64,000 nucleotides of DNA from Nanobdellati archaeon. Its GTDB lineage: Archaea > Nanobdellota > Nanobdellia > Woesearchaeales > GCA-2686295. The notes beneath the pieces are model-generated. The model was not told the DNA's origin. It saw only the letters and a program-made list of their open reading frames with translations, and did no database searches. The stretch is from NCBI GenBank assembly GCA_014384375.1, contig JACNFY010000020.1, forward strand, positions 65,222 to 129,221, written 5' to 3'. The position numbers and the translations under genes were made by a program. Below, in pieces: positions 28,394 through 51,561 of this stretch (positions are counted from its first letter, which is position 1; every line of letters begins with the position of its first letter).

Positions 28394-29179
28394 ATGCCTG
28401 CATATGGTTATTTTCCACAAAAAAACAAGCTAAAAGATTTTCTCTTAAGGATAATTGGATTACCACATCCAGGAGGGAGGTTAAGAACAAACATTTTTCT
28501 AAGCATGTTTGTAAATAAAGGATTAACTCTCGATGCGGGTTGTGGAGAAGGGGCTGTTTGTAGAGAGCTTTCCAAAAGAGGATATAAAATGGTTGGAATT
28601 GACATAAACAGGGAAGGATTAGAATACGCTAAAGATGCAGCAAAGAAGATTAATACAAAACCAGTTTTCATATGTGGGAATATAGAGAAAATACCTTTTC
28701 CAGAAAACAAATTTGACCAAGTAGTATCTCTAGATGTTTTAGAACACGTTAACAACCACATGAAAGCTATCAAAGAGATAAGAAGAGTCTTGAAAAAAGG
28801 AGGAACATTTATTGCCTCAATGCCAACACCCTACTACTTGACAAAGTCATTACTTGGAATCAATTTCGAGAACGAACTTAAAGCTATTGGCCATTTAAGA
28901 GCAGGATATATTTACAAAGACTTTAAAAAAATACTTGAACAAAACGGCTTCAAAGTAGTTGCTCATAAGGAATACTACGGATTCTTTTCAAGATTATCCA
29001 ATGAGTTAGTTTATCTTATTCTTGGGGCAAAAAGAATTTCAAAAGCTAGAAAAAAGATGTATGGATTCAGCTTTTTATCAATTATTACATTTATAATGAT
29101 TTACTCTTTTATGAAATTAGATTTTCTTCTTCCTTTTTGTAAACAAGGACTTGTTATGGTAAAAGCGATAAAGAAGTAA
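28394..29179 (+). CDS. class I SAM-dependent methyltransferase with C-terminal membrane segment
   Basis: 261 aa. Motif I LDAGCGEGAV, post-I GIDIN, and a hydrophobic tail. Confidence 0.7.
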   Translation: MPAYGYFPQKNKLKDFLLRIIGLPHPGGRLRTNIFLSMFVNKGLTLDAGCGEGAVCRELSKRGYKMVGIDINREGLEYAKDAAKKINTKPVFICGNIEKIPFPENKFDQVVSLDVLEHVNNHMKAIKEIRRVLKKGGTFIASMPTPYYLTKSLLGINFENELKAIGHLRAGYIYKDFKKILEQNGFKVVAHKEYYGFFSRLSNELVYLILGAKRISKARKKMYGFSFLSIITFIMIYSFMKLDFLLPFCKQGLVMVKAIKK

Positions 29180-33153: not shown

Positions 33154-33681
33154 TCACTTAATAACTTCAAGAAGATAATGTATTTCTGATGAAGGAAAAA
33201 CCCAGCAAAAAAATCTTTGATAAAAAAGAGGAAATAAATTAATAATAAAATCAAAAGGTAAGGAATAAAACTTTGAATTCATAAAAGACTTACCTGAGAA
33301 AAAAAATATTCTTTTCCTTATAATTTTAAACTTTGCTTTTGAATAATAGCCTTTCTCAGAAAAATAATCAAACGTTTTGTAAGTGAAAAATCTCTTATGT
33401 TGCGGATCATTAAAAGCTCCTTGACCTGAAAAATAAGGAGCTATCACTTTTAATCTTCCTTGAGGCTTTAATAATCTATTAATTTCTTCTAAGACAGCGA
33501 ATAAATCTTCAACATGTTCCAAAAAATGTTTGCAGAAAACTTCATCAAAATGATTTTTTTTAAAAGGATAAGGAAATTTATCCAAATCATGAACAACATC
33601 AACTCCAGGTAACTTTGCAACATCAACATTCAAGTATTCTTCAAGTATGTTTCTGCCACATCCTAAATGTAGTTTATTCAT
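33154..33681 (-). CDS. SAM-dependent methyltransferase (Methyltransf_11-like)
   Basis: 175 aa. LHLGCGRN, HFLEHVED. The start overlaps the aglB stop by 8 nt. Confidence 0.65.
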   Translation of the reverse strand: MNKLHLGCGRNILEEYLNVDVAKLPGVDVVHDLDKFPYPFKKNHFDEVFCKHFLEHVEDLFAVLEEINRLLKPQGRLKVIAPYFSGQGAFNDPQHKRFFTYKTFDYFSEKGYYSKAKFKIIRKRIFFFSGKSFMNSKFYSLPFDFIINLFPLFYQRFFCWVFPSSEIHYLLEVIK

Positions 33682-36541: not shown

Positions 36542-36594
36542 GAAACCCCCCTTCGTGCTAGAAGTTATAATGAGACGTTTATATAATTTTTGCT

Positions 36595-38322
36595 TCAATC
36601 TTTTGCAATATTTTCACTGTCCCACATATCTTGAGGATTATCATTTCTTGCTATTAAAAAATTGTTCATCACTAGATAATCTATTCCTGTACCCATCATA
36701 CATCTATATGCTTCCTCAGGAGTACACACAATTGGCTCTCCTCTGATATTAAATGATGTGTTGATTAATATGGGAACTCCGCTTAGTTTCTCAAACTCTT
36801 TGATAAGAGCATAATATTTCTTGTTTTGTTCTTTTTTAATTGTTTGTAATCTTCCACTACCATCTATATGTGTCACCGACGGAATTAGTTTCCTTTTGTT
36901 TTTCTTCACAGGATAAACAAATAACATATAAGGGACTTCTCTGTCAACTTCAAAATATTCCTTTGCATCTTCCCAAGTTACTACAGGAGCAAAAGGTCTG
37001 AACATCTCTCTATGTTTCACCTTTGCATTAAGTATGTCTTTCATATTCGGATTCAAAGGATTTGCTAAAATGCTTCTATTACCAAGAGCTCTTGGACCCC
37101 ACTCCATTCTTCCCTGAAACCATCCAACAACATCATCTTTCAAAATAAGTTTAGCTGTTTTCCTTATTATTTCAGACTCTGTAAACTCAACATATTTTAT
37201 CTTTCTAGAATCCAGAAATCCTTTTATCTCAACTCTTGAAAATCCGGAGCCAAAATATACATCTTTCAAAACTTGCTTTCTCTTATTCCTAAGAATAGTA
37301 TTGTAAGCGTAAAACGCTGCACCCATAGCTGCTCCTGCATCGCTTGCTGCAGGTTGTATGAACATTTTTTTGAAAGCGGTGTTTTTTGAAATTTTCCCGT
37401 TTGCAACACTGTTAAGAGCCACTCCACCAGCCATGCAAAGATTCTTTACTCCAGTTTCCTTATACAAATTATTTAGTATCTTGAATATTACTTCCTCAGT
37501 TATTTTCTGCAAGGAACAAGCCATATCCTTATATACTTGGTCAATCTTTGACTCTTTCTTTCTTACAGGACCGAATTCCTTTATGAACTTCTTACTTGGC
37601 ATTCTCATCTTGTAATGAAAGTCAAAATAAGACATATCCAACTGAAAGCTTCCATCACTCGCTATCCTAATTACTTTTTTCAACTGCTCATAATAAGTTG
37701 GTTTTCCATAAGCAGCTAACCCCATCACTTTGTACTCATCATTATTCACTTTAAAACCCAGATAAGCTGTAATCGTACTGTATAACAATCCAAGTGAATG
37801 TGGAAAAACAATTTCTTTTGTTATTGTAATATTATTATCTTTTGCATAACCAATACTAGCTGTTGTCCATTCGCCAACACCATCAATAGTAAATATCGAG
37901 GCTTCTTTAAATGGAGAAACTAAGTAAGCTGATGCAGCGTGAGCTAGGTGATGTTCTATAAAGAGAATTTCTCCTTTGTATTTCAAATGCTTTTTCAGCA
38001 TTGAAGGAAATCTAAGTTTTTCATGCAACCATGAAGGCATTGCTTTGTAGAAAGACCAAAAACCACGAGGAAAAACCTCTAAGTATTGGCTTAGTAAGCG
38101 CTCGAATTTCAATAAAGGCTTTTCATAGAAAGCAACATAATCAACATCCTTAATTGTTATTCCTGCCTCTTTCAAGCTGTATAGAGAAGCTTCCTTTGGG
38201 AAGGAATTATCATGCTTCTTTCTTGAGAAGCGTTCCTGTTCTGCAGCAGCAATTATTATGCCATCCTTCAACAAACAAGCAGCACTGTCATGATAATAGC
38301 ACGAAATTCCTAAAATGTACAT
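36595..38322 (-). CDS. NodU/CmcH-family carbamoyltransferase
   Basis: 575 aa. N-terminal ILGISCYYHDSAACLLKDG..AAEQERFSRKKHD and a C-terminal carbamoyltransferase domain (INTSFNIRGEPIV). Confidence 0.85.
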   Translation of the reverse strand: MYILGISCYYHDSAACLLKDGIIIAAAEQERFSRKKHDNSFPKEASLYSLKEAGITIKDVDYVAFYEKPLLKFERLLSQYLEVFPRGFWSFYKAMPSWLHEKLRFPSMLKKHLKYKGEILFIEHHLAHAASAYLVSPFKEASIFTIDGVGEWTTASIGYAKDNNITITKEIVFPHSLGLLYSTITAYLGFKVNNDEYKVMGLAAYGKPTYYEQLKKVIRIASDGSFQLDMSYFDFHYKMRMPSKKFIKEFGPVRKKESKIDQVYKDMACSLQKITEEVIFKILNNLYKETGVKNLCMAGGVALNSVANGKISKNTAFKKMFIQPAASDAGAAMGAAFYAYNTILRNKRKQVLKDVYFGSGFSRVEIKGFLDSRKIKYVEFTESEIIRKTAKLILKDDVVGWFQGRMEWGPRALGNRSILANPLNPNMKDILNAKVKHREMFRPFAPVVTWEDAKEYFEVDREVPYMLFVYPVKKNKRKLIPSVTHIDGSGRLQTIKKEQNKKYYALIKEFEKLSGVPILINTSFNIRGEPIVCTPEEAYRCMMGTGIDYLVMNNFLIARNDNPQDMWDSENIAKD

Positions 38323-39000: not shown

Positions 39001-40113
39001 ATGACTCTTCTTATTGATATTATAAGAGTGATTGACAAATACTTCAATGGTTTATTGTGTTTAATCATAGGATTCCTATCAAAATTGTTTTATTCTAAAC
39101 AACCCAAAAAACCTACAAAGATTGCTTTCATCAAATTATGGGCGATAGGAGACTCTGTAACAACACTCCCTCTTATAAAATCAGTGAAAGAAAAATACAA
39201 GAAAACATCTGTTATTGTGATTGCTAAAAAAAGAAATTTCAGTGTTTACAAAAACCAGAAATTCATTGATTGTATAGTTCTTTTAGAGGGAAGGAATGTT
39301 CTTAAAATCCTAGGATTGTTTAGAAAATTTGATTTGGTTTTTGACCTTGAACCATATCTAAATTTCTCTGCTTTGCTTGCATGGTATATAGGAAAAACAA
39401 GAATAGGATTCTCTGATCAAACAAGATCTACTTTATACAATGAAACAAGTGCTTTTCCAAGGAACAAACACATAGTTGATATATATATGGGTCTTGGAGA
39501 ATTGGTTGGGATTAAAAAGAGAATAACCAATCTACTCAAACTAAAGGTGAGAGAAAAAGACAAGAAAAAAGCAGACTCTTTCTTGAAACAGAGTTATATA
39601 AAAAAATTTGACTTATTAGTTGGCATATGTCCAGGTGCAGCAGAGTCTGTCAGAGAAAGGATGTGGCCAAAAGAAAGATTTGTAACATTAGCTGATAAAA
39701 TTGTGAAAAAATATGGTGCAAAAATAGTATTCATAGGTTCACCTAAAGAAAGCAAGTTAATAGAACAAATAAAAAATAAAATGACTGAACCATCGATAAA
39801 TGTTGCTGGCAAATTAACTCTAGAGCAAACCTTTAGTTTAATTGAAAAATGTAAAATATTTATAAGTAATGATACAGGACCAATGCACATAGCTGCTGCA
39901 CAGGGATGTAAAGTTATTGGCTTATTCGGACCTAACACTCCGAAAAGGTGGGCTCCATTTGGAAAAGGCAATATTTCATTATATCATAAGACTGAATGCA
40001 GTCCTTGCATAGTAAACGAGAAAGGAATAATGCCCAAATGCTTTAACAGAGAGTTCCAGAAATGCATGAAACTCATAACTGTTGAAGAGGTTGAAAAACA
40101 TTTGAAAAAGTAA
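39001..40113 (+). CDS. GT9 glycosyltransferase (heptosyltransferase family)
   Basis: 370 aa. LWAIGDSVTTLPLIKSVK near the N-terminus and FISNDTGPMHIAAAQGCKVIGLFGPNTPKRWAP, the GT9 C-terminal signature. Confidence 0.8.
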   Translation: MTLLIDIIRVIDKYFNGLLCLIIGFLSKLFYSKQPKKPTKIAFIKLWAIGDSVTTLPLIKSVKEKYKKTSVIVIAKKRNFSVYKNQKFIDCIVLLEGRNVLKILGLFRKFDLVFDLEPYLNFSALLAWYIGKTRIGFSDQTRSTLYNETSAFPRNKHIVDIYMGLGELVGIKKRITNLLKLKVREKDKKKADSFLKQSYIKKFDLLVGICPGAAESVRERMWPKERFVTLADKIVKKYGAKIVFIGSPKESKLIEQIKNKMTEPSINVAGKLTLEQTFSLIEKCKIFISNDTGPMHIAAAQGCKVIGLFGPNTPKRWAPFGKGNISLYHKTECSPCIVNEKGIMPKCFNREFQKCMKLITVEEVEKHLKK

Positions 40114-40114
40114 A

Positions 40115-41026
40115 ATGAGATGCGTTGTAACTGGTGGAGCAGGATTCATAGGAAGCAATCTTGCATTGGAATTAGAAAGGCTAAGAAATCAAGTCATAGT
40201 TATAGATACTTTTCTAAAAGGCAATAGAAAAAACTTGGAAGGTTTCAAAGGAGAAATTATAGAAGGAGATGAATCAAAGCTCTCAGATATCAAAGAAAAA
40301 ATTGACGTGATATTCCACTTAGGAGCAATAACTGATACAACAATCACTAATAAGGAAGAGATGTTCAGAAATAATGTTGATGACTTTAAGCTTGTACTTG
40401 ACTTCTGCAAAAAGAATAACTGCAAGCTAATCTATGCATCTTCTGCAGCGATTTATGGAGATGGAGAATCACCTATGAAAGAAGATGATGAACCAAGATC
40501 TCTAAATGCATATGCTGAGTCAAAGCTTGAGATGGAGAAAATGGCAAAGCAAGCATTTAAAGGCAACACATTGGTTGGCTTAAGATACTTCAATGTTTTT
40601 GGTCCGAGAGAGCATTTCAAGGGAAAGATGGCCAGCATGATATATAAGTTAGCCAGACAGATGAGAGCAGGCAAGAATCCGAGGATCTTCAAATATGGAG
40701 AGCAAAAAAGAGATCATGTCTATGTTAAGGATGTTGTGAAAGCGACTATCAAAGCTTTAACATATCCAGACTTTGGAGTGTTTAACGTGGGTACTGGAAA
40801 AGCCACTAGTTTCAATGAAATCATAAAATTTTTAAACGAAGCGCTTGGTACAAGTTATGAGCCAGAATACTTTGACAATCCTTACAAAAGAGCATACCAA
40901 GATTTGACAATGGCCGACATGTCAAAAAGCGAAAAAAATCTTGGCTTCAAAGCAGAGTACACTGTTAAAGAAGGAATAAAGGATTATATTAACTGGTTAA
41001 ACAACACAGGGTGGTATGGTGAATAA
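40115..41026 (+). CDS. hldD: ADP-L-glycero-D-manno-heptose 6-epimerase
   Basis: 303 aa. VTGGAGFIGSN, LRYFNVFGPREHFKGKMASM and YKRAYQDLTMADMS parallel E. coli HldD [20 protein letters not shown] and LKGRYQAFTQADLT (recalled from memory). Confidence 0.85.
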   Translation: MRCVVTGGAGFIGSNLALELERLRNQVIVIDTFLKGNRKNLEGFKGEIIEGDESKLSDIKEKIDVIFHLGAITDTTITNKEEMFRNNVDDFKLVLDFCKKNNCKLIYASSAAIYGDGESPMKEDDEPRSLNAYAESKLEMEKMAKQAFKGNTLVGLRYFNVFGPREHFKGKMASMIYKLARQMRAGKNPRIFKYGEQKRDHVYVKDVVKATIKALTYPDFGVFNVGTGKATSFNEIIKFLNEALGTSYEPEYFDNPYKRAYQDLTMADMSKSEKNLGFKAEYTVKEGIKDYINWLNNTGWYGE

Positions 41027-41582
41027 GGAAATAAAGAAACAATTCGGGGAACACATAGAAGCTGTGAAGAAGAATTATCATCTAATGGATAAAATAGAGC
41101 TGGCAGCAAATACTGTTGTTGAATCTCTAAAAAACAGTGGAAAACTACTTGTATGCGGAAATGGTGGAAGCGCTGCAGATTCTCAACACATAACTGCAGA
41201 ATTGGTTGGAAAATATGAAAAAAATAGAAGAGCTTTGGCTGCTATTGCCTTAACAACTGACACAAGTATGCTCACAGCTTGGAGCAATGACGATTGCTTT
41301 GAAAATGTATTTGCAAAACAGGTAGAGGGATTAGGAAAGAAAGATGATGTATTGATTGGGATTAGTACTTCTGGAAACTCTGAGAATGTTATCAGAGCAT
41401 TAAAAGTAGCAAAAAAGCTTGGCTTGAAAACAATTTCTTTTCTTGGCAGGGATGGTGGAAGAACAAAAGGAATGACGGATATTGAGTTAATAGTTAACTC
41501 AAACAGAACTTCAAGGATACAAGAAGTGCACGAACTTTGTTATCATATAATGTGCGGACTTATAGAGGACAATTTTAGTTAA
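41016..41582 (+). CDS. gmhA: phosphoheptose isomerase (SIS domain)
   Basis: 188 aa. CGNGGSAADSQHITAELVGKY and ISTSGNSENV, typical of GmhA. Confidence 0.85.
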   Translation: MVNKEIKKQFGEHIEAVKKNYHLMDKIELAANTVVESLKNSGKLLVCGNGGSAADSQHITAELVGKYEKNRRALAAIALTTDTSMLTAWSNDDCFENVFAKQVEGLGKKDDVLIGISTSGNSENVIRALKVAKKLGLKTISFLGRDGGRTKGMTDIELIVNSNRTSRIQEVHELCYHIMCGLIEDNFS

Positions 41583-41613
41583 CTATTTATATACACAAAA
41601 GTTTCTAGGCGGA

Positions 41614-43032
41614 ATGAAAGAGCGACTTATCCAGATTATCAACAATTTCAAACGAAAAAGAATTCTTGTCATAGGAGACATTATGCTGGATAAATACATC
41701 TACGGCGATGTATCCAGAATAAGTCCAGAAGCCCCTGTACAAATAGTTAGAGCAAGAAAGGAATCATACAAACTTGGTGGCTCTGGAAACGTTGTAAATA
41801 ACATAACAAGCCTTGGTGCTAAAGCAACTATTATTGGAGAGGTTGGAAAAGACAAAGAAAAAGACATCTTGATAAGACTTTTACGTGAAAAGAAAATAAA
41901 GTCTAGACTAATAAGCACGAAGAAACCAACCATTACAAAGATAAGGGTTGTTGGCAGGAGTCAGCAACTGATAAGGATAGATTATGAGGACGATAAAAAT
42001 AATAATGTTAAAGAAATCATAAAAAAAGTCAAGAGAGAAACAAGAAGCTGTGATGCAATTATAATATCTGATTATGCAAAAGGGTCTATTTCAACAGCTC
42101 TTATGAAGAAAGTGCTTGTTATTGCAAAAGGTAAATCCATAATTGTTGATCCAAAACCAAGTCACAACGTGGATTACAGTGGAGCAACACTAATAACACC
42201 TAATGAAAAAGAATCTTATATTATGAGTGGCTTAGATAAGGGGGAAAAAATATTTGAGGTCATAAAAAAACTTGAGCAGAAAATGAAAACAAAGATTCTT
42301 GTCACCAGAGGAAAAGATGGTATGGCTTTTATCAAAAAGAATGAACTCATAGAGGTGCCAACTATAGCAGAAGAGGTTTATGACGTGACAGGCGCGGGTG
42401 ATACTGTAATTGCAGTTCTTGCGCTTTCAATAGCTTCCGGTGCAAATCTTGAAGAGGCTACTGTAATTGCGAACCACTGTGCAGGAATAGTGGTTACTAA
42501 GTTTGGAACTGCAACTGTTTCAGCAAGAGAACTGTTATCAGCTATTGAAAAGGAGAACAGGAAGCTTAAGAGCCAAGAAGAAATAATAGAAATCAGAAAG
42601 GAGTTGAAGAAGCAAGGAAAAAAAGTAGTATTTACAAATGGTTGCTTTGACATACTACATACAGGGCATGTGAGGTTGCTAGAAAAAACCAGGGCTTTAG
42701 GAGATGTTGTCATACTTGGTTTGAACAGTGATTCTTCTGTTAGAAAGATAAAAGGTCCGACAAGACCAATTATTAAAGAATCCGAGAGAGCAGAGATACT
42801 CTCAGCCTTGGAATGCATTGACTACATTGTGTTCTTTGATGAGAGAACACCTGTAAACATCATTAAAAAACTTAAACCAGACATTCATGTCAAAGGAGGG
42901 GATTACACTAATAAGCCAATGCCTGAAAGAAAGGTTATTGAAGGATATGGAGGTAAAGTTGTTCTAATACCTTTATTCAAAGACTTCTCAACAACAAGCG
43001 TAATCGAGAAAATAAAGAATGAAAAAGCTTAA
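41614..43032 (+). CDS. hldE: bifunctional heptose 7-phosphate kinase / heptose 1-phosphate adenylyltransferase
   Basis: 472 aa. N-terminal PfkB-type kinase (VTGAGDTV) plus a C-terminal cytidylyltransferase fold with an intact motif (TNGCFDILHTGHVRLL). TATA CTATTTATATAC lies about 25 nt upstream. Confidence 0.85.
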   Translation: MKERLIQIINNFKRKRILVIGDIMLDKYIYGDVSRISPEAPVQIVRARKESYKLGGSGNVVNNITSLGAKATIIGEVGKDKEKDILIRLLREKKIKSRLISTKKPTITKIRVVGRSQQLIRIDYEDDKNNNVKEIIKKVKRETRSCDAIIISDYAKGSISTALMKKVLVIAKGKSIIVDPKPSHNVDYSGATLITPNEKESYIMSGLDKGEKIFEVIKKLEQKMKTKILVTRGKDGMAFIKKNELIEVPTIAEEVYDVTGAGDTVIAVLALSIASGANLEEATVIANHCAGIVVTKFGTATVSARELLSAIEKENRKLKSQEEIIEIRKELKKQGKKVVFTNGCFDILHTGHVRLLEKTRALGDVVILGLNSDSSVRKIKGPTRPIIKESERAEILSALECIDYIVFFDERTPVNIIKKLKPDIHVKGGDYTNKPMPERKVIEGYGGKVVLIPLFKDFSTTSVIEKIKNEKA

Positions 43033-44245
43033 AGTTCTCTTAGTTTCTGAATATTTTCCTCCAAAAACTTTTGGTGGAGGTGAGATAAGCGCTTATCATT
43101 TGGCGAAATCACTTGCAGAAGAAGGAGTTAGTGTTTTTGTATTGACTTCTTATTTTAAAGGTTTGAAAAGATTTGGAGAAAAGGATGGTATAAAAATCTT
43201 AAGAACACTCAAAACAGGCAATAACCCTAACTCTATAACCGAGAATTTGAAAAGAAAACTTTACTTTCAAAAATCATTGAAGAAAGATATCTTCAAAATT
43301 GATAATAAAGAAAATTTTGATGTTATACACTTCCTAAACACTACATCAATCCCGAGTTTCAAGATTAAGAAAAAAACAATTGCAACCATTAATGGTTATA
43401 CAAATTTTTGTCCTAAAAGAAACCTTTTCTATAAAGAAAGAGAAGTGTGCTCTGGATGTAATTTTCCAAAGTTCTTAGGATGTATTGTTAACTCAGAAAA
43501 TGTTGGCAAGATAAAAATATCAAGTTACTTAAGGTTTAATCCTTTATTCTGGCTTCTCCTGTATTTTAACTATCTAAAAAAAAATAAAACGTTGAAGCAT
43601 ATTGATAAGTTTATCTCGATATCTGACTTTATCACCAAACAGCTTGAAAAAAATGGTGTTAAGAGAAAAAACATAGAGAAAATCTACAATATCCAAAACA
43701 TAAAAGAGTCAGGGGAAAAATTTGACATAAAAGAAAAAGGAGTTATCGTAACATACATAGGCGCTCTGGAAAAACTTAAAGGGGTGGATATATTAATAAA
43801 AGCATTCAACAAAATTCATGGTGATGCTAAGCTTCTTATATTTGGGGAGGGGTCCCAAATAGAATACTTGGAATCAATCGCTAACAAGAATGTTAGGTTT
43901 TATGGAAGTATTGATTACAGTTATATACCGTCTATCTATACACAGTCAGACATAATAGTCCAGCCAGCCTTGTGGCCTGAACCTTTCTCCAGAATAATGC
44001 TAGAAGCGACCTATTTTGGAAAACCGATAATTGCTACTGATAATGGAGGTAATTCTGAGGGAGTTATTGATGAAAAGAATGGTTTTCTTATCAATAATGA
44101 AGAACAGCTAAAACAAAAACTAGAGAAGCTCATTAAACACAAAACACTAAGAGAAAAAATGGCTTTGGAGAGCAAAAGGTTGTTTAAGGAAAAATTTTCA
44201 AAAAAAGTTATACTAAGCAAATACAAAAAAATTCTAAATTATTAA
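43019..44245 (+). CDS. GT4 (GT-B, Glycos_transf_1) glycosyltransferase
   Basis: 408 aa. EPFSRIMLEATYFGKPIIATDNGGNSEGV (E-x7-E region). Confidence 0.8.
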   Translation: MKKLKVLLVSEYFPPKTFGGGEISAYHLAKSLAEEGVSVFVLTSYFKGLKRFGEKDGIKILRTLKTGNNPNSITENLKRKLYFQKSLKKDIFKIDNKENFDVIHFLNTTSIPSFKIKKKTIATINGYTNFCPKRNLFYKEREVCSGCNFPKFLGCIVNSENVGKIKISSYLRFNPLFWLLLYFNYLKKNKTLKHIDKFISISDFITKQLEKNGVKRKNIEKIYNIQNIKESGEKFDIKEKGVIVTYIGALEKLKGVDILIKAFNKIHGDAKLLIFGEGSQIEYLESIANKNVRFYGSIDYSYIPSIYTQSDIIVQPALWPEPFSRIMLEATYFGKPIIATDNGGNSEGVIDEKNGFLINNEEQLKQKLEKLIKHKTLREKMALESKRLFKEKFSKKVILSKYKKILNY

Positions 44246-44937
44246 TCCTTGAAAGTCTTTCTTGCTTTTTTAATATCATCTGGAAAATCAATATCTACAA
44301 ATCGTTTGTTTTTGATATCATGAGCAGTGACTTTTTGCCCACTCATAATCAGATTATCAATAACATCTATGAAGCTAGTCTTAATATCTTTCTTTGCAAT
44401 CTTATCAAGCATAGTCATAAGTTTTTGCATACCTTCTTTTGAAAACTTTGCAATACCTATGAATTCACCATTTTCCCCTTTTATATCCTCTTTTGTTATT
44501 CTCTCAACTAAACCATTTTTCTCGATCACCTTTTCAGCTTCCTCTCTTAAATCATTCTTCTTTACTGCCAAACAAACATCTCCTTTTTGCTTCACTAAAT
44601 CGCTGATAATATTTGAATCAAATAAAACATCTGAATAGAGGAATATAAATCCTTCTTTCAATTCTTCTTTAGCTATCCACAATGTCAGAGCCATACCTGA
44701 CACATTATAGAACGGGTTGAATATGGTTTTAATCTTTTTTTTTTGACAGAATTTCTCGACTTTGTTTGCACAGAAACCAGTTATTACAGAAACATCTTGA
44801 ATTGAAGCGTTTCTTAATAATTTAATCTGATACTCGAGAATTGTTTGTTTATTTACCTCTAAGAGACATTGTGGTGTATTCTTTGTTAAAGGAAGCAGTC
44901 TTGTAGCTTTGCCTGCTGCTAATATAATTGCTTTCAT
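44242..44937 (-). CDS. LicC/COG1213-like nucleotidyltransferase (phospho-alcohol or phosphonate cytidylyltransferase candidate)
   Basis: 231 aa. MKAIILAAGKATRLLPLTKNTPQCLL, NPFYNVSGMALTLW, LYSDVLF. Own TATA (AAATTTATAAAC) about 28 nt upstream. Confidence 0.65.
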   Translation of the reverse strand: MKAIILAAGKATRLLPLTKNTPQCLLEVNKQTILEYQIKLLRNASIQDVSVITGFCANKVEKFCQKKKIKTIFNPFYNVSGMALTLWIAKEELKEGFIFLYSDVLFDSNIISDLVKQKGDVCLAVKKNDLREEAEKVIEKNGLVERITKEDIKGENGEFIGIAKFSKEGMQKLMTMLDKIAKKDIKTSFIDVIDNLIMSGQKVTAHDIKNKRFVDIDFPDDIKKARKTFKD

Positions 44938-44988
44938 ATTAAATAGTTGGTTTTATTGTTTATAAATTTGTTGTTTGAATAAAAATAA

Positions 44989-45738
44989 TTATTTCATTAA
45001 ACTCTCTATTGTTCCTTCAATCACGAGCGCTCTTGGCATAATCATATTAGCTACGTTAGCAAATGTTGGGTTATTGTAACCTCTTTTTGGATCAGAATAT
45101 CTTTTTTGTATATCTAATAATCTTTCTTCAATAGATACTCTTTTTCCATTGACATTAGTTAAATCTGCATATAATGCTATCTGTTGATTTAATGTTAAAG
45201 GCAAAGCCAACTCATTTATTGATAGAGGAATGTTGGTATCTGATAGCTCTGTTCTTAAGTATTCTATTCTTTCTTTAAATGAATCTATCATGTCAGGATA
45301 TAAGGTTTGTTCTGGAAAATTCAATCCTCCCAATTCTTCAAAAAGCCCATGGTCTGACAGTATAAGAGAGGCTATTTTCTTTAATGTTTCTTTACGTTCT
45401 GATTTTGTTCCTTCACTTACTAAACCAAGCTCAGTATCTCCTGCTGTTAACACTAAATAAGCAGTTCCAATTTCATGAAACTTGCTTCCTTCATAGATCT
45501 TTGAGAAATCGTGCACATAGCCCTCTACTCTGATAATCTCAGGGTCTATTTGCTCTTTTAGGGATGGGTGTTTTTTTATTATTTCTTTTGATATATCCCA
45601 ACCTATTCTGCCAGAATCAATTAAATGCTGAGAGAATCCTTCTCCTTCTATAATGTAACCTTTATCTCTATTATTTTTAACTTCTGATTCAATAAGTGCC
45701 TTTGCATCACTTTCTGCTATTAATTTAATTTCTCTCAT
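44989..45738 (-). CDS. HD-domain metal-dependent phosphohydrolase-like protein
   Basis: 249 aa. H...HD pattern (FSQHL ... GYVHDFSK). Own TATA about 28 nt upstream. Substrate unknown. Confidence 0.45.
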   Translation of the reverse strand: MREIKLIAESDAKALIESEVKNNRDKGYIIEGEGFSQHLIDSGRIGWDISKEIIKKHPSLKEQIDPEIIRVEGYVHDFSKIYEGSKFHEIGTAYLVLTAGDTELGLVSEGTKSERKETLKKIASLILSDHGLFEELGGLNFPEQTLYPDMIDSFKERIEYLRTELSDTNIPLSINELALPLTLNQQIALYADLTNVNGKRVSIEERLLDIQKRYSDPKRGYNNPTFANVANMIMPRALVIEGTIESLMK

Positions 45739-45808
45739 AGTATTCAGACATAGTAATAAGTATTTAAAACTTTTGATTTAGTTACTACTTTATAGTAATT
45801 ATTTTTGT

Positions 45809-46663
45809 TCATAGTTCTGTTTTGAGTATTTTTTTTCTTACGTAAGCACTAGAACGATCAATCAACATCACTCCAACTATCATTATTATGAGTATTGTTA
45901 AAACCTCTTTATTGCGGAATAATCTCATACTGGTTAATAGTTCCATACCAATACCTCCAGCACCAACCAAACCAAGAACAGTTGCTGCTCTGAAATTATT
46001 CTCTAAGTAATATAGCATATAGTTAATAAATAAAGGTTTTACTTGTGGTAAAATTCCTCTTACAATCACTTGAACTTTATTAGCACCTGTTGAAATAATT
46101 GCTTTTATTATTTCAGGATCTACTGTTTCAATAGACTCTGAAAAATATCTTCCAAGCGCTCCAATAACATGTACTGTTAAGGCTAACACTCCTGGAAAAG
46201 GTCCAAGTCCAACCATTGAAACAAATATCAGCCCCCATACTATTTCGTTTATTCCTCTGCAAATATCAAAAATTGTTCTTACACTATGATAAACTAATTT
46301 GTTGTGCATTACATTACGTGCTGCAAGAAAAGACAATGGAAGAGCTATTAAAGCTCCTAAAGTCGAACCAACAATTGCCATCTGTAAAGTTTCCAATGCT
46401 TTCAAAAGAAAGGTTCCCAAATTGCTTATATCTGGTGGGAACATTCGACGTACAAAATCAATCATGAAGGGAACTCCTTCTGCAAACTTAACAGGACTGG
46501 TATTTGTTCCGGTCAAAGCCCAGTAATAGATTATAACTATAAGTATACCTATAAAAAATCCTTTGTATCTTTTCATGAATAGTTTCTTAGTTCTGATTTC
46601 CTTAATTTTAGAATCCTGCTTTTCCATAAAGATACCAATCTTTTGTTTTTCCATAAATGTCAA
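45809..46663 (-). CDS. phnE: phosphonate ABC transporter permease
   Basis: 284 aa, six TM helices, PhnE-like blocks (LKALETLQMAIVGSTLGALIALPLSFLAARN). Start uncertain: in-frame Met codons at 46663, 46654, 46627 and 46576. Confidence 0.8.
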   Translation of the reverse strand: MTFMEKQKIGIFMEKQDSKIKEIRTKKLFMKRYKGFFIGILIVIIYYWALTGTNTSPVKFAEGVPFMIDFVRRMFPPDISNLGTFLLKALETLQMAIVGSTLGALIALPLSFLAARNVMHNKLVYHSVRTIFDICRGINEIVWGLIFVSMVGLGPFPGVLALTVHVIGALGRYFSESIETVDPEIIKAIISTGANKVQVIVRGILPQVKPLFINYMLYYLENNFRAATVLGLVGAGGIGMELLTSMRLFRNKEVLTILIIMIVGVMLIDRSSAYVRKKILKTEL

Positions 46664-47381
46664 CTATGTCTTTTTCTGTAAGATTTTCAGGTTTATCATC
46701 AAAAACAATTTTTCCATCTCTCATTCCAATTATTCTTGATCCATACTTTTTGGCGAAATTTAAAAAATGAAGACTTGTTACAAGAGTTATTCCCTTTTCA
46801 ACACAAATATTTTTTAACAGGTCCATAATTTCTTTCATTAGCTTTGGATCCAAATTAGACACGGGTTCATCAGCAAGTATAACACTTGGTTGTTGTGATA
46901 ACACTCTTGCTATAGCAACTCTTTGTTTTTGTCCTCCGCTTAAATTCATTGTATGTTCATACATATATTCATGCAAACCGACTCTACTAATGCACTCTTT
47001 TGCGATATCATGATCTTCTTTTGAGAATTTTCCAAAGATTGTTTTCCAATGATTGTTATAACTAAGACGACCATTCAAAACATTATGAAAAACTGTTTCT
47101 CTCTCAAGAATATTAAAATTTTGAAAAATCATACCTATGTTTGCCCTTATTTTCTCAGCTTTTTTTTGGTGGCAATTAGAAATATTTTGATTATCAATAA
47201 GAACACTTCCAGAAGTGGATTCTATTAATCTATTTATGCATTTGAGTAAAGTTGATTTTCCAGAACCACTAGAACCAATGATAACTACATTCTCTCCTTT
47301 CTTTATGTGAAGATTGATATTTTTAACAGCATTCTCAGTTCTATTTTTATAAATGTGATTCAGTTTTTTTATCTTTATCAT
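46608..47381 (-). CDS. phnC: phosphonate ABC transporter ATP-binding protein
   Basis: 257 aa. Walker A GSSGSGKST, signature LSGGQKQR, ILADEPVSNLDP. The PhnC-like C-terminus binds no extra domain. Confidence 0.85.
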   Translation of the reverse strand: MIKIKKLNHIYKNRTENAVKNINLHIKKGENVVIIGSSGSGKSTLLKCINRLIESTSGSVLIDNQNISNCHQKKAEKIRANIGMIFQNFNILERETVFHNVLNGRLSYNNHWKTIFGKFSKEDHDIAKECISRVGLHEYMYEHTMNLSGGQKQRVAIARVLSQQPSVILADEPVSNLDPKLMKEIMDLLKNICVEKGITLVTSLHFLNFAKKYGSRIIGMRDGKIVFDDKPENLTEKDIVDIYGKTKDWYLYGKAGF

Positions 47382-47411
47382 TTTTCTTATTATAATAAAA
47401 AAATAAAAAAA

Positions 47412-48323
47412 TTATTTGTTAGCTGCCTCTGCAGTGCTAACATCCATTCCAAGAATCTCTGCTGTATCCCTGATAACATCATAATCGCTATCAGATACTT
47501 TTTGATACTTGGAAATTCCTCCCCATCCATCAACTTGATGAATAGTTTGCTGATCCATGTTAAGTAAAGCATCCTGTATGGCTTTCTTAAGCTCTTCTGG
47601 TAGATTACCTCTAACAACAATCGGGGAACCAGGTATTGGCTCCGATTCATAGATAATGATGTTAGCTTCAGGGTCAATTTCTCCAGCATCTATCATTCTT
47701 TGGTATACATTATCACCAGTTGCCCCTGCATCCACTTTACCATTAGCAATAGCATACATGACCGCATTATGGGTTCCGGCATAGTAGCTTGTGCTGAAGT
47801 CATTGTCAGGATCTATACCATTCTCTATCAATATCTTTCTTGGTATCAAATTGCCTGATGTTGAAGCAGGATCTACAAATGCGAAGGTTTTCCCTTTTAA
47901 ATCTTCTAGGGTTTCAATACCAGAGTCAACATTCGTAACTATAACAGACTTATAGGTTGCGCTTCCTGTGCTTTCCTTAACACCATTAACAATCGCTTCT
48001 GCACCTGCAACATTTGATGCAATAACATATGAAAATGGTCCGAACCAAGCCATATCAATATGTTCTGATCTCATTGCTTCAATAGCAGCAGTGTAGTCGC
48101 TTGTAACCAATATCTCAACAGGTATACCTAACGCTGCAGATAGATATTCTTTCACAGGTTCATAAGCTCTTATCATTTCCTGCGAATCATCAGCAGGAAT
48201 AAGACCCATCTTCAAAACAGAGAATTCTTCTTCTCCATATGTCTTTGTTTCTTCTACTTCTGACTGACATCCAGCTAAAACAACTATGAACATCAGAAGA
48301 AGTCCTAAAATTATTTTCTTCAT
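47412..48323 (-). CDS. phnD: phosphonate/phosphite-family ABC substrate-binding lipoprotein
   Basis: 303 aa. Lipobox LAGC, and PhnD-type blocks (DMAWFGPFSYV, FVDPASTSGNLIP, YAGTHNAV). ATGA overlap with the upstream nucleotidyltransferase gene. Confidence 0.8.
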   Translation of the reverse strand: MKKIILGLLLMFIVVLAGCQSEVEETKTYGEEEFSVLKMGLIPADDSQEMIRAYEPVKEYLSAALGIPVEILVTSDYTAAIEAMRSEHIDMAWFGPFSYVIASNVAGAEAIVNGVKESTGSATYKSVIVTNVDSGIETLEDLKGKTFAFVDPASTSGNLIPRKILIENGIDPDNDFSTSYYAGTHNAVMYAIANGKVDAGATGDNVYQRMIDAGEIDPEANIIIYESEPIPGSPIVVRGNLPEELKKAIQDALLNMDQQTIHQVDGWGGISKYQKVSDSDYDVIRDTAEILGMDVSTAEAANK

Positions 48324-49123
48324 TCATCAACACCTCCAATATCAGATGGTATTTCTCCACCTATTTTTTTAAAGTCTTGAACAGTATCAAATTCTTTCCA
48401 CCCTTTCTGGATTAAAACACTATGAATCTCTTCTCCTTTATCGATCATCTCCTGGAAAATATCAGTTATGTATGATTTTTGCCACTCATTTGTATTCTGA
48501 TAGGTATCTATCATTTTCAAGATTGAATTTAATCTGTCAAAATGCTTTAGAAATATTCTTATTCCTTCAGGCGTAAATTTCCATAAACCAATGAATTCTC
48601 CTTGCTTATTCTTGGGAGTGTTGTTTGTGAATATATGTTTGCCAATTTTGAGCATCTTATTGTTTGTGTCTGTTATAACGTTCTCTGCTTCTTCAATAGG
48701 GTGATCTGTTCTTCCTTCATAGTATTCTTGCCAATCAGTATCCACTATAGCTGCTATTGTTTTTTTAGAATTGATAAGCTTCTTTATCACCCAATCTTCA
48801 TATAGTATATCAGAATAGCTTATTACAATATCCTCATTTTCTTTCTCTGCTTTTTCAAGATGTTTTCGCGCAAACATCAACGAGTGAAGTATATTGTTAT
48901 CTGTGTAAGCAGTATTTTCATAATAGGTTATATCTGGAAAATTAATCTTTTCTTTTGCGTAACCCCTTACAATTGCAATATCATCTACATCATTATTTTC
49001 GAATACTTGAAGAATGTTCTCCATTATAGACTTGTCGCCTATCTTTAGCATACACTTCGGTAGATTATTAGTTATCGGTCTTAACCTACTACATATCCCT
49101 GCAGCTATCACTATTCCTTTCAT
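48320..49123 (-). CDS. LicC/COG1213-like nucleotidyltransferase
   Basis: 267 aa. MKGIVIAAGICSRLRPITNNLPKCML, YYENTAYTDNNILHSL, ISYSDILY. ATGA overlaps at both ends. Confidence 0.65.
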   Translation of the reverse strand: MKGIVIAAGICSRLRPITNNLPKCMLKIGDKSIMENILQVFENNDVDDIAIVRGYAKEKINFPDITYYENTAYTDNNILHSLMFARKHLEKAEKENEDIVISYSDILYEDWVIKKLINSKKTIAAIVDTDWQEYYEGRTDHPIEEAENVITDTNNKMLKIGKHIFTNNTPKNKQGEFIGLWKFTPEGIRIFLKHFDRLNSILKMIDTYQNTNEWQKSYITDIFQEMIDKGEEIHSVLIQKGWKEFDTVQDFKKIGGEIPSDIGGVDE

Positions 49124-49659
49124 TTTGTTTCTCTGCTTATACCTAATATTTTTTTCAAAATATTCTCTCTTGATAATCTCTCGTAGAATGGAGGCTGTAT
49201 AACCTCTCCTCCAATTTTTTTTATATACTCACTTCCAGGAATTTTCTTCCAATCAGTTCCATGTATTAGAATAAGCTTTGCATTTGGGAATTGTTCATGA
49301 ATCTTTTTCAGATTATCTACTGAATCTTTGCTGTCTTGTGTCATAACCATATCAACACACCTAAGAGAAGATATGATTGCTGTCCTTTCCTTTAAGTTGG
49401 CAACGGGTGCTCCTTTGTATGATTTTATAACTTCATCTTTTAGAACGCCACATATATGAAAATCTCCTAATTTGTTTGCATGTTCTAACAATCTAAGCTG
49501 ACCATAGTTAAATAAGTCTGCTGTTGTAAAAGAATAAACAATTTTTTTTATTTTTTCTTTCTCTATACTCACGATATCCCCTTCTTTTATCCCAGAATTC
49601 TTGGGGATAGTAACACAGAGTTGACCATTTGATTTATTTAACCACACAATCTTTTTCAT
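49120..49659 (-). CDS. AbrB/SpoVT-like DNA-binding domain fused to a degenerate cytidylyltransferase-like domain (putative regulator)
   Basis: 179 aa. N-terminus SNGQLCVTIPKNSGIKEGDIVSIEKE is AbrB-like. The remainder is TagD-like, but HxGH is replaced by NYGQ (FTTADLFNYGQLRLLEHANKLGD). Confidence 0.5.
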   Translation of the reverse strand: MKKIVWLNKSNGQLCVTIPKNSGIKEGDIVSIEKEKIKKIVYSFTTADLFNYGQLRLLEHANKLGDFHICGVLKDEVIKSYKGAPVANLKERTAIISSLRCVDMVMTQDSKDSVDNLKKIHEQFPNAKLILIHGTDWKKIPGSEYIKKIGGEVIQPPFYERLSRENILKKILGISRETK

Positions 49660-49660
49660 T

Positions 49661-49679
49661 CTACTAGTATTACTAGTAG
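49661..49679. promoter_or_regulatory. perfect 19-bp palindrome CTACTAGTATTACTAGTAG (two TACTAGTA units), putative operator
   Basis: Read directly from the sequence. Lies between the TATA-like box (49681..49692) and ATG 49659, over the expected transcription start. Confidence 0.55.
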
Positions 49680-49680
49680 G

Positions 49681-49692
49681 ATATTTATAAAG
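49681..49692 (-). promoter_or_regulatory. TATA box (CTTTATAAATAT on the minus strand) for the regulator-NTase-phnDCE operon
   Basis: The centre lies about 27 nt upstream of ATG 49659, the same spacing as other first-gene promoters in this window. Confidence 0.45.
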
Positions 49693-50400: not shown

Positions 50401-51561
50401 CTACTTTATATTTAGGTATTCAAAAACTCTTTTAGAAGAATTTCCATCATGATATTTGTTAAATTTATCTCTTATTTTCTTTACAAATTTTTTGTTAATT
50501 TCAAAATCCTCTTTTTTTAAACAATATATAATCTCTTCTTCAGTTCTACAAACAATCGGTTTAAATTCTTCTTGAACATCAAAATAAACCCCTCTTTTTT
50601 CTACATATCCCTCATAATCGTAAGCATACAATAATAGAGGTTTTAGCAAAAGAGAGAAATCAAAAATAACGCCTGAATAATCGGTTATTACTACATCAAT
50701 ACAAGGTAATAACTCTTGAATATCATCAACTTGCGGGGTGATGTTCTTTATGTTTGTCAACTGAGGATTTATCAGGGATGTTTCAAGTGCGTGTGCCTTC
50801 ATAATGAGCACATAATTCTTCTCTTCTAAAAGCTTGTTTAACATTATTAAACCATGCTCAGAAAAAGATGGTTTTTTTGCATAATCCCTATAAGTAGGAG
50901 CATAGAGGATTATCTTCTTATATTTCTTTAAATTAAGTTTTTCTCTCAGATTAACTGTACTAAGTTCATCATCAAAAAGAACGTCATTCCTAGGGTATCC
51001 TGTAATTATAGACTTGCATCTATAACTTCTTTCAGAAATTCTTTTCGAATATTCACAAGTATTTAGTATTAGTCTATATTTTGTATATTGTTTCTTAAGC
51101 AGCCACTTTAAAATTGGATTGGAATTCTTATAATAATAGTTATCAAACCCAATTTTTTTAATTACTGTACCGTGCCAAGTCATTATTATGTTAAAACGAC
51201 CGTTTAGATTACTTAAGTTAATAGTTGTTATGCAATCAGTTTCAACAAAAATGTATTTTGCTCTGAGAATCGACCACCAGTTTCTTAATCGAAAATCATG
51301 TTTCTTAACACCTTCTATGACTTTTTCCTTCTTTTCCTCATTGCTTATGAACATCATAACATCGTAATTCGGAAGATACTTCTTTGCATAGAGGTATAAA
51401 TACTTCGGATTCTCTCTCAAGCCTTTACCGGCTATTGTCTGAAACAAAAGAAGTTTTTCGTTCTTAGGTATTATATAACTTAATAGAAACATAACTACCT
51501 CAAAAACAAATAACTTGATTATTGATATAAGAGATATCGTATTTCGCGCCATCTTACACAA
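50401..51561 (-). CDS. TagB/TagF-family CDP-alcohol (glycerol/ribitol) phosphotransferase
   Basis: 386 aa. LYAPTYRDY, MKAHALE, and VITDYSGVIFDFSLLLKPLLLYAYDYEGYVEKRGVYFDV, typical of the Glyphos_transf family. Confidence 0.8.
   Translation of the reverse strand: MCKMARNTISLISIIKLFVFEVVMFLLSYIIPKNEKLLLFQTIAGKGLRENPKYLYLYAKKYLPNYDVMMFISNEEKKEKVIEGVKKHDFRLRNWWSILRAKYIFVETDCITTINLSNLNGRFNIIMTWHGTVIKKIGFDNYYYKNSNPILKWLLKKQYTKYRLILNTCEYSKRISERSYRCKSIITGYPRNDVLFDDELSTVNLREKLNLKKYKKIILYAPTYRDYAKKPSFSEHGLIMLNKLLEEKNYVLIMKAHALETSLINPQLTNIKNITPQVDDIQELLPCIDVVITDYSGVIFDFSLLLKPLLLYAYDYEGYVEKRGVYFDVQEEFKPIVCRTEEEIIYCLKKEDFEINKKFVKKIRDKFNKYHDGNSSKRVFEYLNIK

Follow-up and report, generated by a model that had tools for sequence, protein, structure and literature searches.

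Small phosphonates are activated for surface decoration by the phosphonyl-tailoring (Pnt) pathway, in which LicC-fold nucleotidyltransferases of family PF12804 and nucleotidyltransferases of family PF01467 produce cytidine monophosphate (CMP) conjugates (PMC6697681). Both families are enriched near phosphoenolpyruvate (PEP) mutase, and about 60% of PEP mutases carry one of them as a fusion; PntC makes CMP-2-aminoethylphosphonate (CMP-AEP) (Rice et al., 2019; PMC6697681). Salvage, activation, and decoration are also the logic of the Lic pathway for salvaged choline, which comprises the permease LicB, the kinase LicA, the cytidylyltransferase LicC, and the transferase LicD. The transporter genes phnCDE are treated as part of catabolism in surveys (PMC9381506). 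We analyzed a stretch of 64,000 nucleotides from a Nanobdellati archaeon (assembly GCA_014384375.1, contig JACNFY010000020.1, positions 65,222-129,221; hereafter the window), in which a minus-strand cassette at 44242-49692 joins a PhnDCE importer to two LicC-like nucleotidyltransferases, NT1 and NT2. The cassette probably represents an import-fed Pnt pathway, that is, importer-fed activation of phosphonates for decoration. It would keep the activate-and-decorate logic of the Pnt and Lic pathways, with an ATP-binding cassette (ABC) importer replacing synthesis of the carbon-phosphorus (C-P) bond, and it appears to be widespread in DPANN archaea and to have a candidate dedicated regulator. An earlier sequence-only reading of the window had proposed the core of this idea, namely that a Phn-type importer and LicC/PntC-type nucleotidyltransferases together serve decoration and not the acquisition of phosphorus, and our results support it through gene context, recurrence, and the lack of C-P lyase genes in 1.54 Mb.

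The locus is similar to the Pnt pathway in that PEP mutase is a neighbor or fusion partner of NT1 relatives and that the best structural match of NT1 is PntC-AEPT. It differs in its archaeal DPANN host, in its two or three nucleotidyltransferases, and in having PhnDCE instead of a PEP mutase, a decarboxylase, and an aminotransferase, none of which is present in the window. With the Lic pathway it shares the salvage-activate-decorate logic and the LicC-like NT2, but here import is by an ABC transporter whose binding protein belongs to the PhnD family, a kinase would not be needed, and LicD was not seen; Pfam scans of the window open reading frames (ORFs) of at least 150 aa found no LicA, LicB, or LicD families. 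The transporter belongs to the same family (TC 3.A.1.9) as the PhnCDE of the E. coli C-P lyase system and as PtxABC, and carries the same head-binding motifs (ASTSG and GTH), whereas it lacks a catabolic partner (C-P lyase or PtxD) and has Ser233 in place of Asp205/Tyr208 and Asn205 in place of Glu177. The sequence-only reading knew of no described coupling between a Phn transporter and decoration. In the literature searched, whose incomplete coverage makes this weak evidence, we likewise found no Phn transporter coupled to tailoring of the phosphonate or phosphocholine type and no phosphonate tailoring in DPANN archaea.

The ORFs of the cassette were taken from the ORF list and assigned by Pfam and NCBIfam profile scans, with PDB searches for single proteins, and the profile matches bore out the gene content and strand read earlier. 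In transcriptional order, the minus strand encodes ORF1 (49120..49659; 179 aa, an AbrB/MazE-like N-terminus followed by a PF01467 domain, 2.3e-8), NT1 (48320..49123; 267 aa, PntC/LicC fold, PF00483/PF12804), the substrate-binding lipoprotein PhnD (47412..48323; TIGR03431, 280.6 bits, cut-off 261.1), the ABC ATPase PhnC (46608..47381; TIGR02315, 318.4 bits, cut-off 266.1), the permease PhnE (maximal ORF 45809..46663; TIGR01097, 295.8 bits, cut-off 216.7), an HD-motif ORF, and NT2 (44242..44937; 231 aa, PF12804/PF00483). All three transporter proteins thus exceed the curated NCBIfam equivalog cut-offs. PhnE likely starts at an ATG at 46627 or 46654, overlapping the end of phnC. As had been read before, a TATA-like box (TTTATAAATAT, 49681..49692, minus strand) starts 32 nt 5' of the ORF1 ATG, and ATGA stop/start overlaps join ORF1 to NT1 (49120-49123) and NT1 to phnD (48320-48323). 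In the window, 11 first genes have a TATA-like motif 28-34 nt 5' of their start, among them the HD ORF (30 nt) and NT2 (29 nt), both of which had been credited with their own box; this spacing fits leaderless or near-leaderless archaeal transcripts. Between phnD and phnC lies a 30-nt spacer (47382..47411, minus strand) with a T7-A-T7 tract and then an A/T box (TTATAATA); the spacer may act as an archaeal terminator or else as a promoter inside the gene string. The proposed single operon is therefore backed by the ATGA overlaps from ORF1 to phnD, while one transcript running through phnE is plausible but not assured. At the other end of the cassette, NT2 (minus strand) and a convergent GT4 glycosyltransferase gene (43019-44245, plus strand) overlap at their 3' ends by 4 nt (44242-44245), leaving no space for separate terminators.

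The linkage of importer and nucleotidyltransferase recurs in other genomes. A scan with an NT1 alignment, using one genome per species, gave 80 loci that were annotated by tblastn, and three further loci (L090-L092) were selected through PhnD alone. All 21 independent loci with a PhnDCE of the cassette type (the window, L001, L003, L006-L009, L012-L017, L019, L023, L025-L027, and L090-L092; mostly DPANN) have at least one such nucleotidyltransferase, NT2 or a PF01467 protein, in the same gene string, a count biased by the selection of most of them (18) through NT1. The three loci found through PhnD, on contigs of 1.0, 0.28, and 0.84 Mb, all carry a PF01467 gene directly 5' of phnD, and two of them an NT2 orthologue after phnE; NT1, PEP mutase (Ppm), phosphonopyruvate decarboxylase (Ppd), and methylphosphonate synthase (MpnS) were absent within 10 kb in all three. 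PhnDs of the cassette type, taken at 60% identity or more, fall into more than 100 clusters. Across the cassette loci PhnDCE is 63-86% identical (PhnD 63-79%, PhnE up to 86%), and the gene order is shuffled: NT1-DCE-NT2, DCE-NT2-NT1, and ORF1-DCE-NT2-Ppm-NT1 all occur, and three metagenome loci (L001, L003, and L006) hold NT1, PhnD, PhnC, PhnE, and an NT2 orthologue together in differing orders. Some 20 other loci keep the linkage despite this rearrangement, so it goes beyond chance. Recurrence had been an expectation of the sequence-only reading, and it was found in 18 loci through NT1 and in three of three through PhnD.

The loci most closely related through NT1 sort by neighbor. Among the 23 in which NT1 is at least 47% identical, 11 have PhnDCE only, three have PhnDCE together with Ppm/Ppd (L014, L017, and L027), six have Ppm/Ppd only, and three have neither within the flank. 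NT2 is present in the 11 PhnDCE-only loci wherever the contig is long enough, and its orthologues keep company with PhnDCE and show no such tie to Ppm; NT2 is the constant partner of cassette-type PhnDCE. The hosts of the 23 loci are mostly DPANN or unclassified archaeal metagenome-assembled genomes (MAGs), with one Armatimonadota and one Acidobacteriota. Some labels are odd: among L007, L009, L010, L014, L016, and L027, several records are titled "uncultured Methanosarcinales archaeon", and these besides the two bacterial hosts and one PhnD labelled Patescibacteria may reflect mis-binning, mis-classification, or horizontal spread of the cassette.

Gene context, which is the strongest line of evidence, further ties NT1 to phosphonates. 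No PEP mutase or phosphonopyruvate decarboxylase was detected in the 64-kb window by tblastn, and the C-P lyase core (PhnG/H/I/J) was found neither there nor in 91 loci totalling 1.54 Mb, in agreement with the absence of PEP mutase and C-P lyase from the window noted earlier. NT1 orthologues elsewhere adjoin PhnDCE, a full phosphonate pathway (PEP mutase, decarboxylase, Fe-alcohol dehydrogenase [Fe-ADH], and MpnS), or both, and nine loci pair NT1 with PEP mutase, the association by which a LicC-like gene is recognized as a PntC. In the biosynthetic sister loci, Ppm is fused to PF01467 or PF12804 and is accompanied by a thiamine pyrophosphate-dependent decarboxylase and an Fe-ADH; directly after NT1 these loci encode a cupin of about 410-450 aa that matches MpnS of N. 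maritimus (6b9s, 6e-93) better than HEPD (6b9r, 3e-65). Six of seven MpnS homologues keep the Phe and the Ile of the MpnS signature (F162/I184). The NT1 of one Ppm-context locus (L010) is 71% identical to the window NT1, no more distant than any importer-linked copy, and in L017 the order ORF1-PhnD-PhnC-PhnE-NT2-(cytidylyltransferase-Ppm)-NT1-MpnS places the transporter within a phosphonate cluster. The only relatives of NT1 that the scan gave outside its own clade are remote and bacterial (25-34% identity; Bacillales, Cytophagales, Gemmatimonadota, and others). In each of their 53 loci the relative comes directly after PEP mutase or forms a fusion with it, and the decarboxylase follows, usually with a PntC-aminotransferase fusion of the PntC-AEPT type. 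The simplest account of this context is that the importer may replace or supplement de novo synthesis as the source of phosphonate for the nucleotidyltransferases.

Six sister loci (L010, L011, L017, L021, L022, and L027) resemble the Nitrosopumilus-type methylphosphonate cluster, which consists of Ppm, Ppd, Pdh, MpnS, a nucleotidyltransferase, and a sulfatase-like gene (PMC9381506). They contain a cytidylyltransferase-Ppm fusion, Ppd, Fe-ADH, an MpnS homologue, and an NT1 orthologue 63-71% identical, with sulfatase-family and glycosyltransferase genes nearby. Unlike in that cluster, the importer takes the place of the biosynthetic genes in the window and in at least 13 other loci, and the hosts are DPANN, not Thaumarchaeota. 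As a separate observation, the MpnS homologues lie inside Ppm/Ppd/Fe-ADH clusters of DPANN or unclassified archaeal MAGs (L022, 10777-12132; also L010, L011, L017, L021, and L027, with a divergent one in L014). MpnS requires O2, which is notable for lineages usually regarded as anaerobic. In a survey, archaeal MpnS was listed only in Thaumarchaeota and Crenarchaeota (PMC9381506).

LicC (1jyk) and PntC (6pd1) are the best solved relatives of both NT1 and NT2. By sequence, the match of NT1 to LicC covers the N-terminal 100 residues only (7.5e-11), where the nucleotide loop of the GxGxR type is present as AAGICSRLRP. An AlphaFold model of NT1 built from 34 orthologues (pLDDT 86.7) had PntC-AEPT (6pd2/6pd1) as its top Foldseek match (4.7e-17, TMq about 0.7), with LicC at TMq 0.72. 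NT2 matches S. pneumoniae LicC (1jyk) over its full length (residues 1-229, 6e-21), followed by the PntC domain of T. denticola PntC-AEPT (6pd1, 7e-13). The NT1 family comprises 2049 proteins at E ≤1e-5, the best 120 of which are 60-73% identical. In a rough neighbor-joining tree, NT1 proteins from PhnDCE, Ppm, and mixed contexts are intermixed (61-73% identity), and NT1 and NT2 both fall outside the Tde-PntC/AEPT clade. The suggestion that the two enzymes are not sugar-1-phosphate nucleotidyltransferases is consistent with the PEP mutase context of the NT1 relatives, the PntC structural match, and the full-length likeness of NT2 to LicC. Reading substrate specificity from the columns of LicC D105/D192 and Tde-PntC E104/E196 was dropped, since the MAFFT and HMMER alignments lie one residue apart at both sites. 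The function predicted from these likenesses is cytidylylation, in which NT1 and NT2 would use CTP to convert a phosphonate into its CMP conjugate.

ORF1 and the DNA in front of it form a second recurrent module. A perfect 19-bp palindrome (CTACTAGTAATACTAGTAG, 49661..49679) with the core ACTAGT-N3-ACTAGT separates the TATA box from the start codon of ORF1; the core occurs once in the window, against a chance expectation of 0.19 with one mismatch allowed. The palindrome is present in all 12 loci with an ORF1 orthologue, once each and at the equivalent position, and is absent from 80 loci without ORF1. Outside the window the sites are L003 8808-8822, L007 172-186, L008 8686-8700, L010 12964-12978, L012 9448-9462, L014 19474-19488, L016 9388-9402, L017 4857-4871, L023 9464-9478, L025 4781-4795, and L092 about 9010-9030, the last being a one-mismatch version. 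This module stands first both in importer operons, of which the window has one, and in biosynthetic operons such as that of L010 (ORF1, cytidylyltransferase-Ppm, Ppd, and Fe-ADH). ORF1 orthologues are 63-77% identical and begin with 37 near-invariant residues (NKSNGQLCVTIPKNSGIKEGDIV) before the PF01467 domain. These N-terminal residues match the MazE/AbrB family PF04014 below threshold (E 0.08-0.1), and a PDB profile search returned only cradle-loop-barrel peptides (E 0.15). The description of ORF1 as AbrB/cytidylyltransferase-like therefore stands for its PF01467 domain, whereas the AbrB call is sub-threshold (E 0.08), and with its degenerate HxGH motif the protein looks like a regulator. 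The best PDB matches of ORF1 are human ethanolamine-phosphate cytidylyltransferase (ECT; 3elb, 2.4e-12) and the cytidylyltransferase domain of Fom1 (5x3d, 4.2e-11), with TagD behind (9e-7). A TagD-type identity was rejected because the TIGR01518 score, 31.5 bits, is far below the cut-off (165), because ECT and Fom1 rank above TagD, and because HxGH is absent here.

From these features, ORF1 is probably the regulator of the operon, an enzyme-repressor possibly in relatives and a pure regulator here, where it may be catalytically dead. The conservation of the palindrome suggests that ORF1 binds ACTAGT-N3-ACTAGT as a candidate operator. An analogy can be drawn with the enzyme-repressors NadR and BirA: ORF1 likewise couples a nucleotidyltransferase fold to a putative DNA-binding domain at the head of a pathway, but that domain would be an AbrB/MazE-like half-barrel rather than a helix-turn-helix, and its binding is deduced from the palindrome. 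The Fom1 cytidylyltransferase, which activates 2-hydroxyethylphosphonate in fosfomycin synthesis, is similar to ORF1 and to the PF01467 genes 5' of phnD in L090-L092, and B12-radical-SAM genes of the Fom3 family type recur nearby; unlike Fom1, the enzymes here are stand-alone or fused to the AbrB-like domain and not to Ppm, the window copy has lost HxGH, and no epoxidase or antibiotic-type genes are present.

The binding protein PhnD carries the lipobox LAGC, and a lipobox is found in all 17 cassette PhnDs, which makes PhnD a lipid-anchored extracytoplasmic receptor. The loops that bind the phosphonate head are kept, DPASTSGNL and AGTHNAV aligning with GDPNSTSGFL and AGHETNA of E. coli PhnD. 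The closest solved sequences are PtxB (5o2j, 1.3e-51; 5lv1 and 5jvb), followed by HtxB, E. coli PhnD (8e-26), and GpxB (9lf9, 3.7e-17). Phosphite specificity rests on a strictly conserved capping Tyr (Y208 of Te_PtxB) hydrogen-bonded to Asp22 of lobe 1 (PMC5700983). By alignment the Y208 column is Ser233 and the D22 column Ala44 in the window PhnD, so a phosphite importer was rejected although PtxB is the nearest solved sequence, in line with the earlier expectation that PhnD is not a phosphite binder. In E. coli PhnD, Glu177 and Asp205 coordinate the amine of 2-AEP (PMC12718374). The corresponding columns are Asn205 and Ser233 here, with an invariant Asp204 one column earlier (the T176 column), and the cap context reads IPGSPIVV against IPGDPIVW in E. 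coli. IPGSPI, PADD, and Asp204 are invariant in all 17 cassette PhnDs. Judged from these columns, PhnD is not a binder of the phosphite type; its tail pocket is polar and less closed and has a single acidic residue, which is compatible with a small substituted phosphonate.

Taken together, our results can be arranged in a pathway whose cargo, nucleotide, transferase, and acceptor, and the DNA binding of ORF1, are the parts that we infer. The lipoprotein PhnD would catch a small extracellular phosphonate, most likely 2-aminoethyl- or 2-hydroxyethylphosphonate (AEP or HEP) and possibly methylphosphonate, which PhnC and PhnE would carry into the cell. NT1 and NT2, and in relatives also the PF01467 enzyme, would use CTP to form the CMP-phosphonate; the cargo would already bear a phosphorus group, so that no kinase is needed. 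A transferase of the CDP-alcohol type would then place the phosphonyl group on a surface glycan or lipid from the surrounding glycosylation island, the candidate here being TagF-like and that in other loci a CDP-OH_P_transf or sulfatase-family enzyme. ORF1 would bind the palindrome over the transcription start and tune the operon to the supply of ligand. Hints about the cargo come from the PF01467 partners, which resemble HEP-activating and phosphoethanolamine/AEP-activating enzymes, from NT2, which resembles phosphocholine/AEP enzymes, and from NT1, which travels with MpnS and also with clusters ending at HEP (L018). A speculative possibility is a broad importer in which each nucleotidyltransferase serves a different common phosphonate (methylphosphonate, HEP, or AEP). 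The wider proposal, that DPANN archaea unable to make C-P bonds import AEP, HEP, or methylphosphonate from neighbors or hosts, activate them as CMP conjugates, and display them on glycans or lipids under an AbrB-cytidylyltransferase-fold regulator acting on ACTAGT-N3-ACTAGT, seems to us evenly poised.

The glycosylation island around the cassette contains AglB/STT3 (33674-36598), PMT_2, GT2, GT4, and GT9 glycosyltransferases, a carbamoyltransferase, a heptose pathway, DegT, NeuB, formyltransferases, several methyltransferases, and a TagF-type gene. The latter (Glyphos_transf, 50401..51561, minus strand; PF04464, 4.9e-73) ends 742 bp from ORF1, which upholds the earlier description of an island with a TagF-type gene about 700 bp away. 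CDP-alcohol phosphotransferases and TagF-type enzymes transfer an activated phosphoryl or phosphonyl group, releasing CMP. The TagF-type gene is the only candidate transferase in the window for the predicted activated head group. Counting the window, such enzymes occur in at least five archaeal loci (L003-5, L011, L013, and L017 among them), and some bacterial Ppm clusters have them too. The island also holds a complete-looking module of the ADP-heptose type (39001-43032), with a GT9 heptosyltransferase, an NAD epimerase, a SIS isomerase, and an HldE-like fusion of a PfkB kinase and a PF01467 adenylyltransferase. The PfkB domain of this heptose pathway, at 41614-43032, contradicts the literal claim that the window has no kinase, but no kinase of the choline or ethanolamine type was seen in the window.

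Genes neighboring 26 loci were clustered and representatives scanned with Pfam. The most recurrent families were S-adenosylmethionine (SAM) methyltransferases (15), CDP-alcohol phosphatidyltransferases (9), GT2 (9), B12-radical-SAM enzymes (7), the sulfatase/phosphodiesterase family (6), and HIT proteins (5). A protein of about 270 aa without a Pfam match, often beside the HIT protein, occurs in six loci (L014 7984-8853, L001, L009, L010, L011, and L013). The same kinds of genes have been reported in neighborhoods of phosphonate or methylphosphonate production (PMC9381506). In 7 of 16 cassettes (L001 9773-10504, L012, L013, L015, L016, L025, and L026), the phnD/phnC junction itself holds a SAM methyltransferase, and its nearest characterised relatives are, weakly (E 6e-7), the phosphoethanolamine N-methyltransferases of Plasmodium. 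In the window a related methyltransferase lies 16 kb away (28394-29179), and the phnD/phnC junction has the T7-A-T7 spacer only. B12-binding radical-SAM enzymes stand beside cassettes and Ppm (L022 13466-14722; L003, L006, L008, L009, L016, L023, and L090-L092). Fom3 belongs to this class and methylates CMP-HEP. By analogy, the recurrence of B12-radical-SAM enzymes hints at C-methylated phosphonate head groups.

The HD-motif ORF between phnE and NT2 (44989..45738, minus strand; 249 aa) has an HD dipeptide and its own TATA-like box, as had been noted, but searches of Pfam, NCBIfam, and the PDB returned nothing for the ORF itself. Of the 21 members of its family, two have weak PF01966 matches, and homologues occur in unrelated contexts, amid housekeeping genes in two other genomes, one of which is the MAG of the L012 cassette on another contig. 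A homologue was absent from all other cassettes examined. A role as a PhnZ-like or FomD-like pathway hydrolase was rejected on the lack of a match and on these contexts; the HD ORF is not part of the cassette but an unrelated gene with its own promoter. Unrelated, weakly HD-like proteins lie near L006 and L091, so that a loose HD association is possible.

Among the alternatives, the same logic of import, cytidylylation, and transfer may act on a phosphate ester, either phosphoethanolamine or phosphocholine from host lipids or glycerol phosphate, leading to ester decoration. LicC, the best solved relative of NT2 (6e-21, full length), is a phosphocholine enzyme, the best solved relative of ORF1 is human ethanolamine-phosphate cytidylyltransferase, the methyltransferase inserted between phnD and phnC in seven cassettes weakly resembles a phosphoethanolamine N-methyltransferase, and the TagF-type glycerophosphotransferase gene lies close by. 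In addition, the PhnD-family protein GpxB binds glycerol-1/3-phosphate, with Arg223 and Thr247 on the glycerol hydroxyls (PMC12718374). However, the Arg223 column is Asn205 in the window PhnD and the Thr247 column is the similar Ser233, as read by a transitive alignment through E. coli E177/D205, and the 9lf9 match is weak (3.7e-17 against 1.3e-51 for PtxB). A TagD/TagF CDP-glycerol system with a glycerol-phosphate importer was rejected on the loss of this Arg, the low similarity, the nearer relation of ORF1 to ECT and Fom1, and the absence of HxGH. Ester cargo is also opposed by the lack of LicA, LicB, and LicD among the ORFs scanned, by the presence of NT1 orthologues and of the ORF1/operator module in Ppm/Ppd/Fe-ADH/MpnS clusters, and by the three loci in which the transporter itself lies within such a cluster. 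We regard this explanation as unlikely.

The transporter might instead recapture phosphonate made and shed by the same cell, as a recycling accessory of a Pnt pathway with its biosynthetic genes elsewhere. The loci that hold PhnDCE and Ppm/Ppd together agree with this, as does the fact that only 64 kb of the genome is visible. Where Ppm is present, however, it lies within about 4 kb of NT1, and none was found within at least 10 kb in the 11 NT1-selected and three PhnD-selected loci or in the window. Small genomes with a generally limited biosynthetic repertoire, as DPANN archaea have, also count against recapture, and we consider it improbable. That PhnDCE is a plain scavenger of phosphorus (phosphate or phosphonate) in a phosphate-hungry, glycan or teichoic-like island, with the nucleotidyltransferases acting on unrelated internal substrates, is very improbable: E. 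coli PhnCDE also transports phosphate and phosphate esters, the three proteins fit generic equivalog models, and the T-rich spacer after phnD permits separate expression of the transporter, but this PhnDCE subtype is linked to NT2 or PF01467 genes in 21 of 21 loci despite rearrangement, NT1 is ATGA-coupled to phnD, the distribution is complementary to that of Ppm/MpnS, the promoter is shared under the candidate operator, and no locus has C-P-cleaving genes, so that imported phosphonate could not give phosphate.

Several points weigh against an import-fed Pnt pathway. Its cargo and acceptor are deduced from gene content, and the presence of two or three different nucleotidyltransferases per single importer is left without explanation. 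The Foldseek margin between PntC and generic sugar-1-phosphate nucleotidyltransferases is small for NT1 (E 1e-17 vs 1e-14), and the nearest characterised relatives of NT2 and ORF1 (LicC and ECT) act on phosphate esters. In the window ORF1 the HxGH motif (residues about 47-54) is NYGQ, with both His lost, the orthologues having HYGH or HYGQ. The Asp204/Asn205/Ser233 pocket of PhnD fits no characterised specificity class, and Ser is the commonest residue at the cap column (57 of 128 diverse uncharacterised PhnD relatives), so the pocket does not identify the ligand. PhnD-family proteins can also bind non-phosphonates, as GpxB does (PMC12718374). Finally, the recurrence count is biased by locus selection through NT1, the PhnD-centred sample consists of three loci, and a PEP mutase or a catabolic gene may lie elsewhere in a genome of which 64 kb was seen.

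Two observations concern other parts of the window. Rfam reported two tRNAs (20283-20401 and 14994-15049) and ARAGORN none; the 119-nt length of the former suggests an intron-containing archaeal tRNA. At 3955-5171, amid housekeeping genes, an AbiEii-type nucleotidyltransferase toxin gene (PF08843, 1.4e-17) and the overlapping, unannotated 196-aa ORF that follows it form a possible type IV toxin-antitoxin pair.

Phosphonate genes are currently assigned either to producers, recognized by PEP mutase, or to consumers, which have transporters and C-P cleavage. The cassette, if our explanation is true, would add a third category that imports phosphonates and re-uses them intact as decoration. Phosphonates would then move intact between organisms, and phnD, phnC, and phnE in metagenomes would not always be markers of catabolism. 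Some of the phosphonate esters in the environment, those methylphosphonate esters that underlie aerobic methane included, could be second-hand. ORF1 with its operator is a candidate phosphonate-responsive archaeal regulator, and one binding protein with two or three small soluble enzymes would offer an easy experimental entry to the phosphonates exchanged in nature. Phosphonate surface chemistry would thus reach the ultra-small, symbiotic, scavenging archaea.

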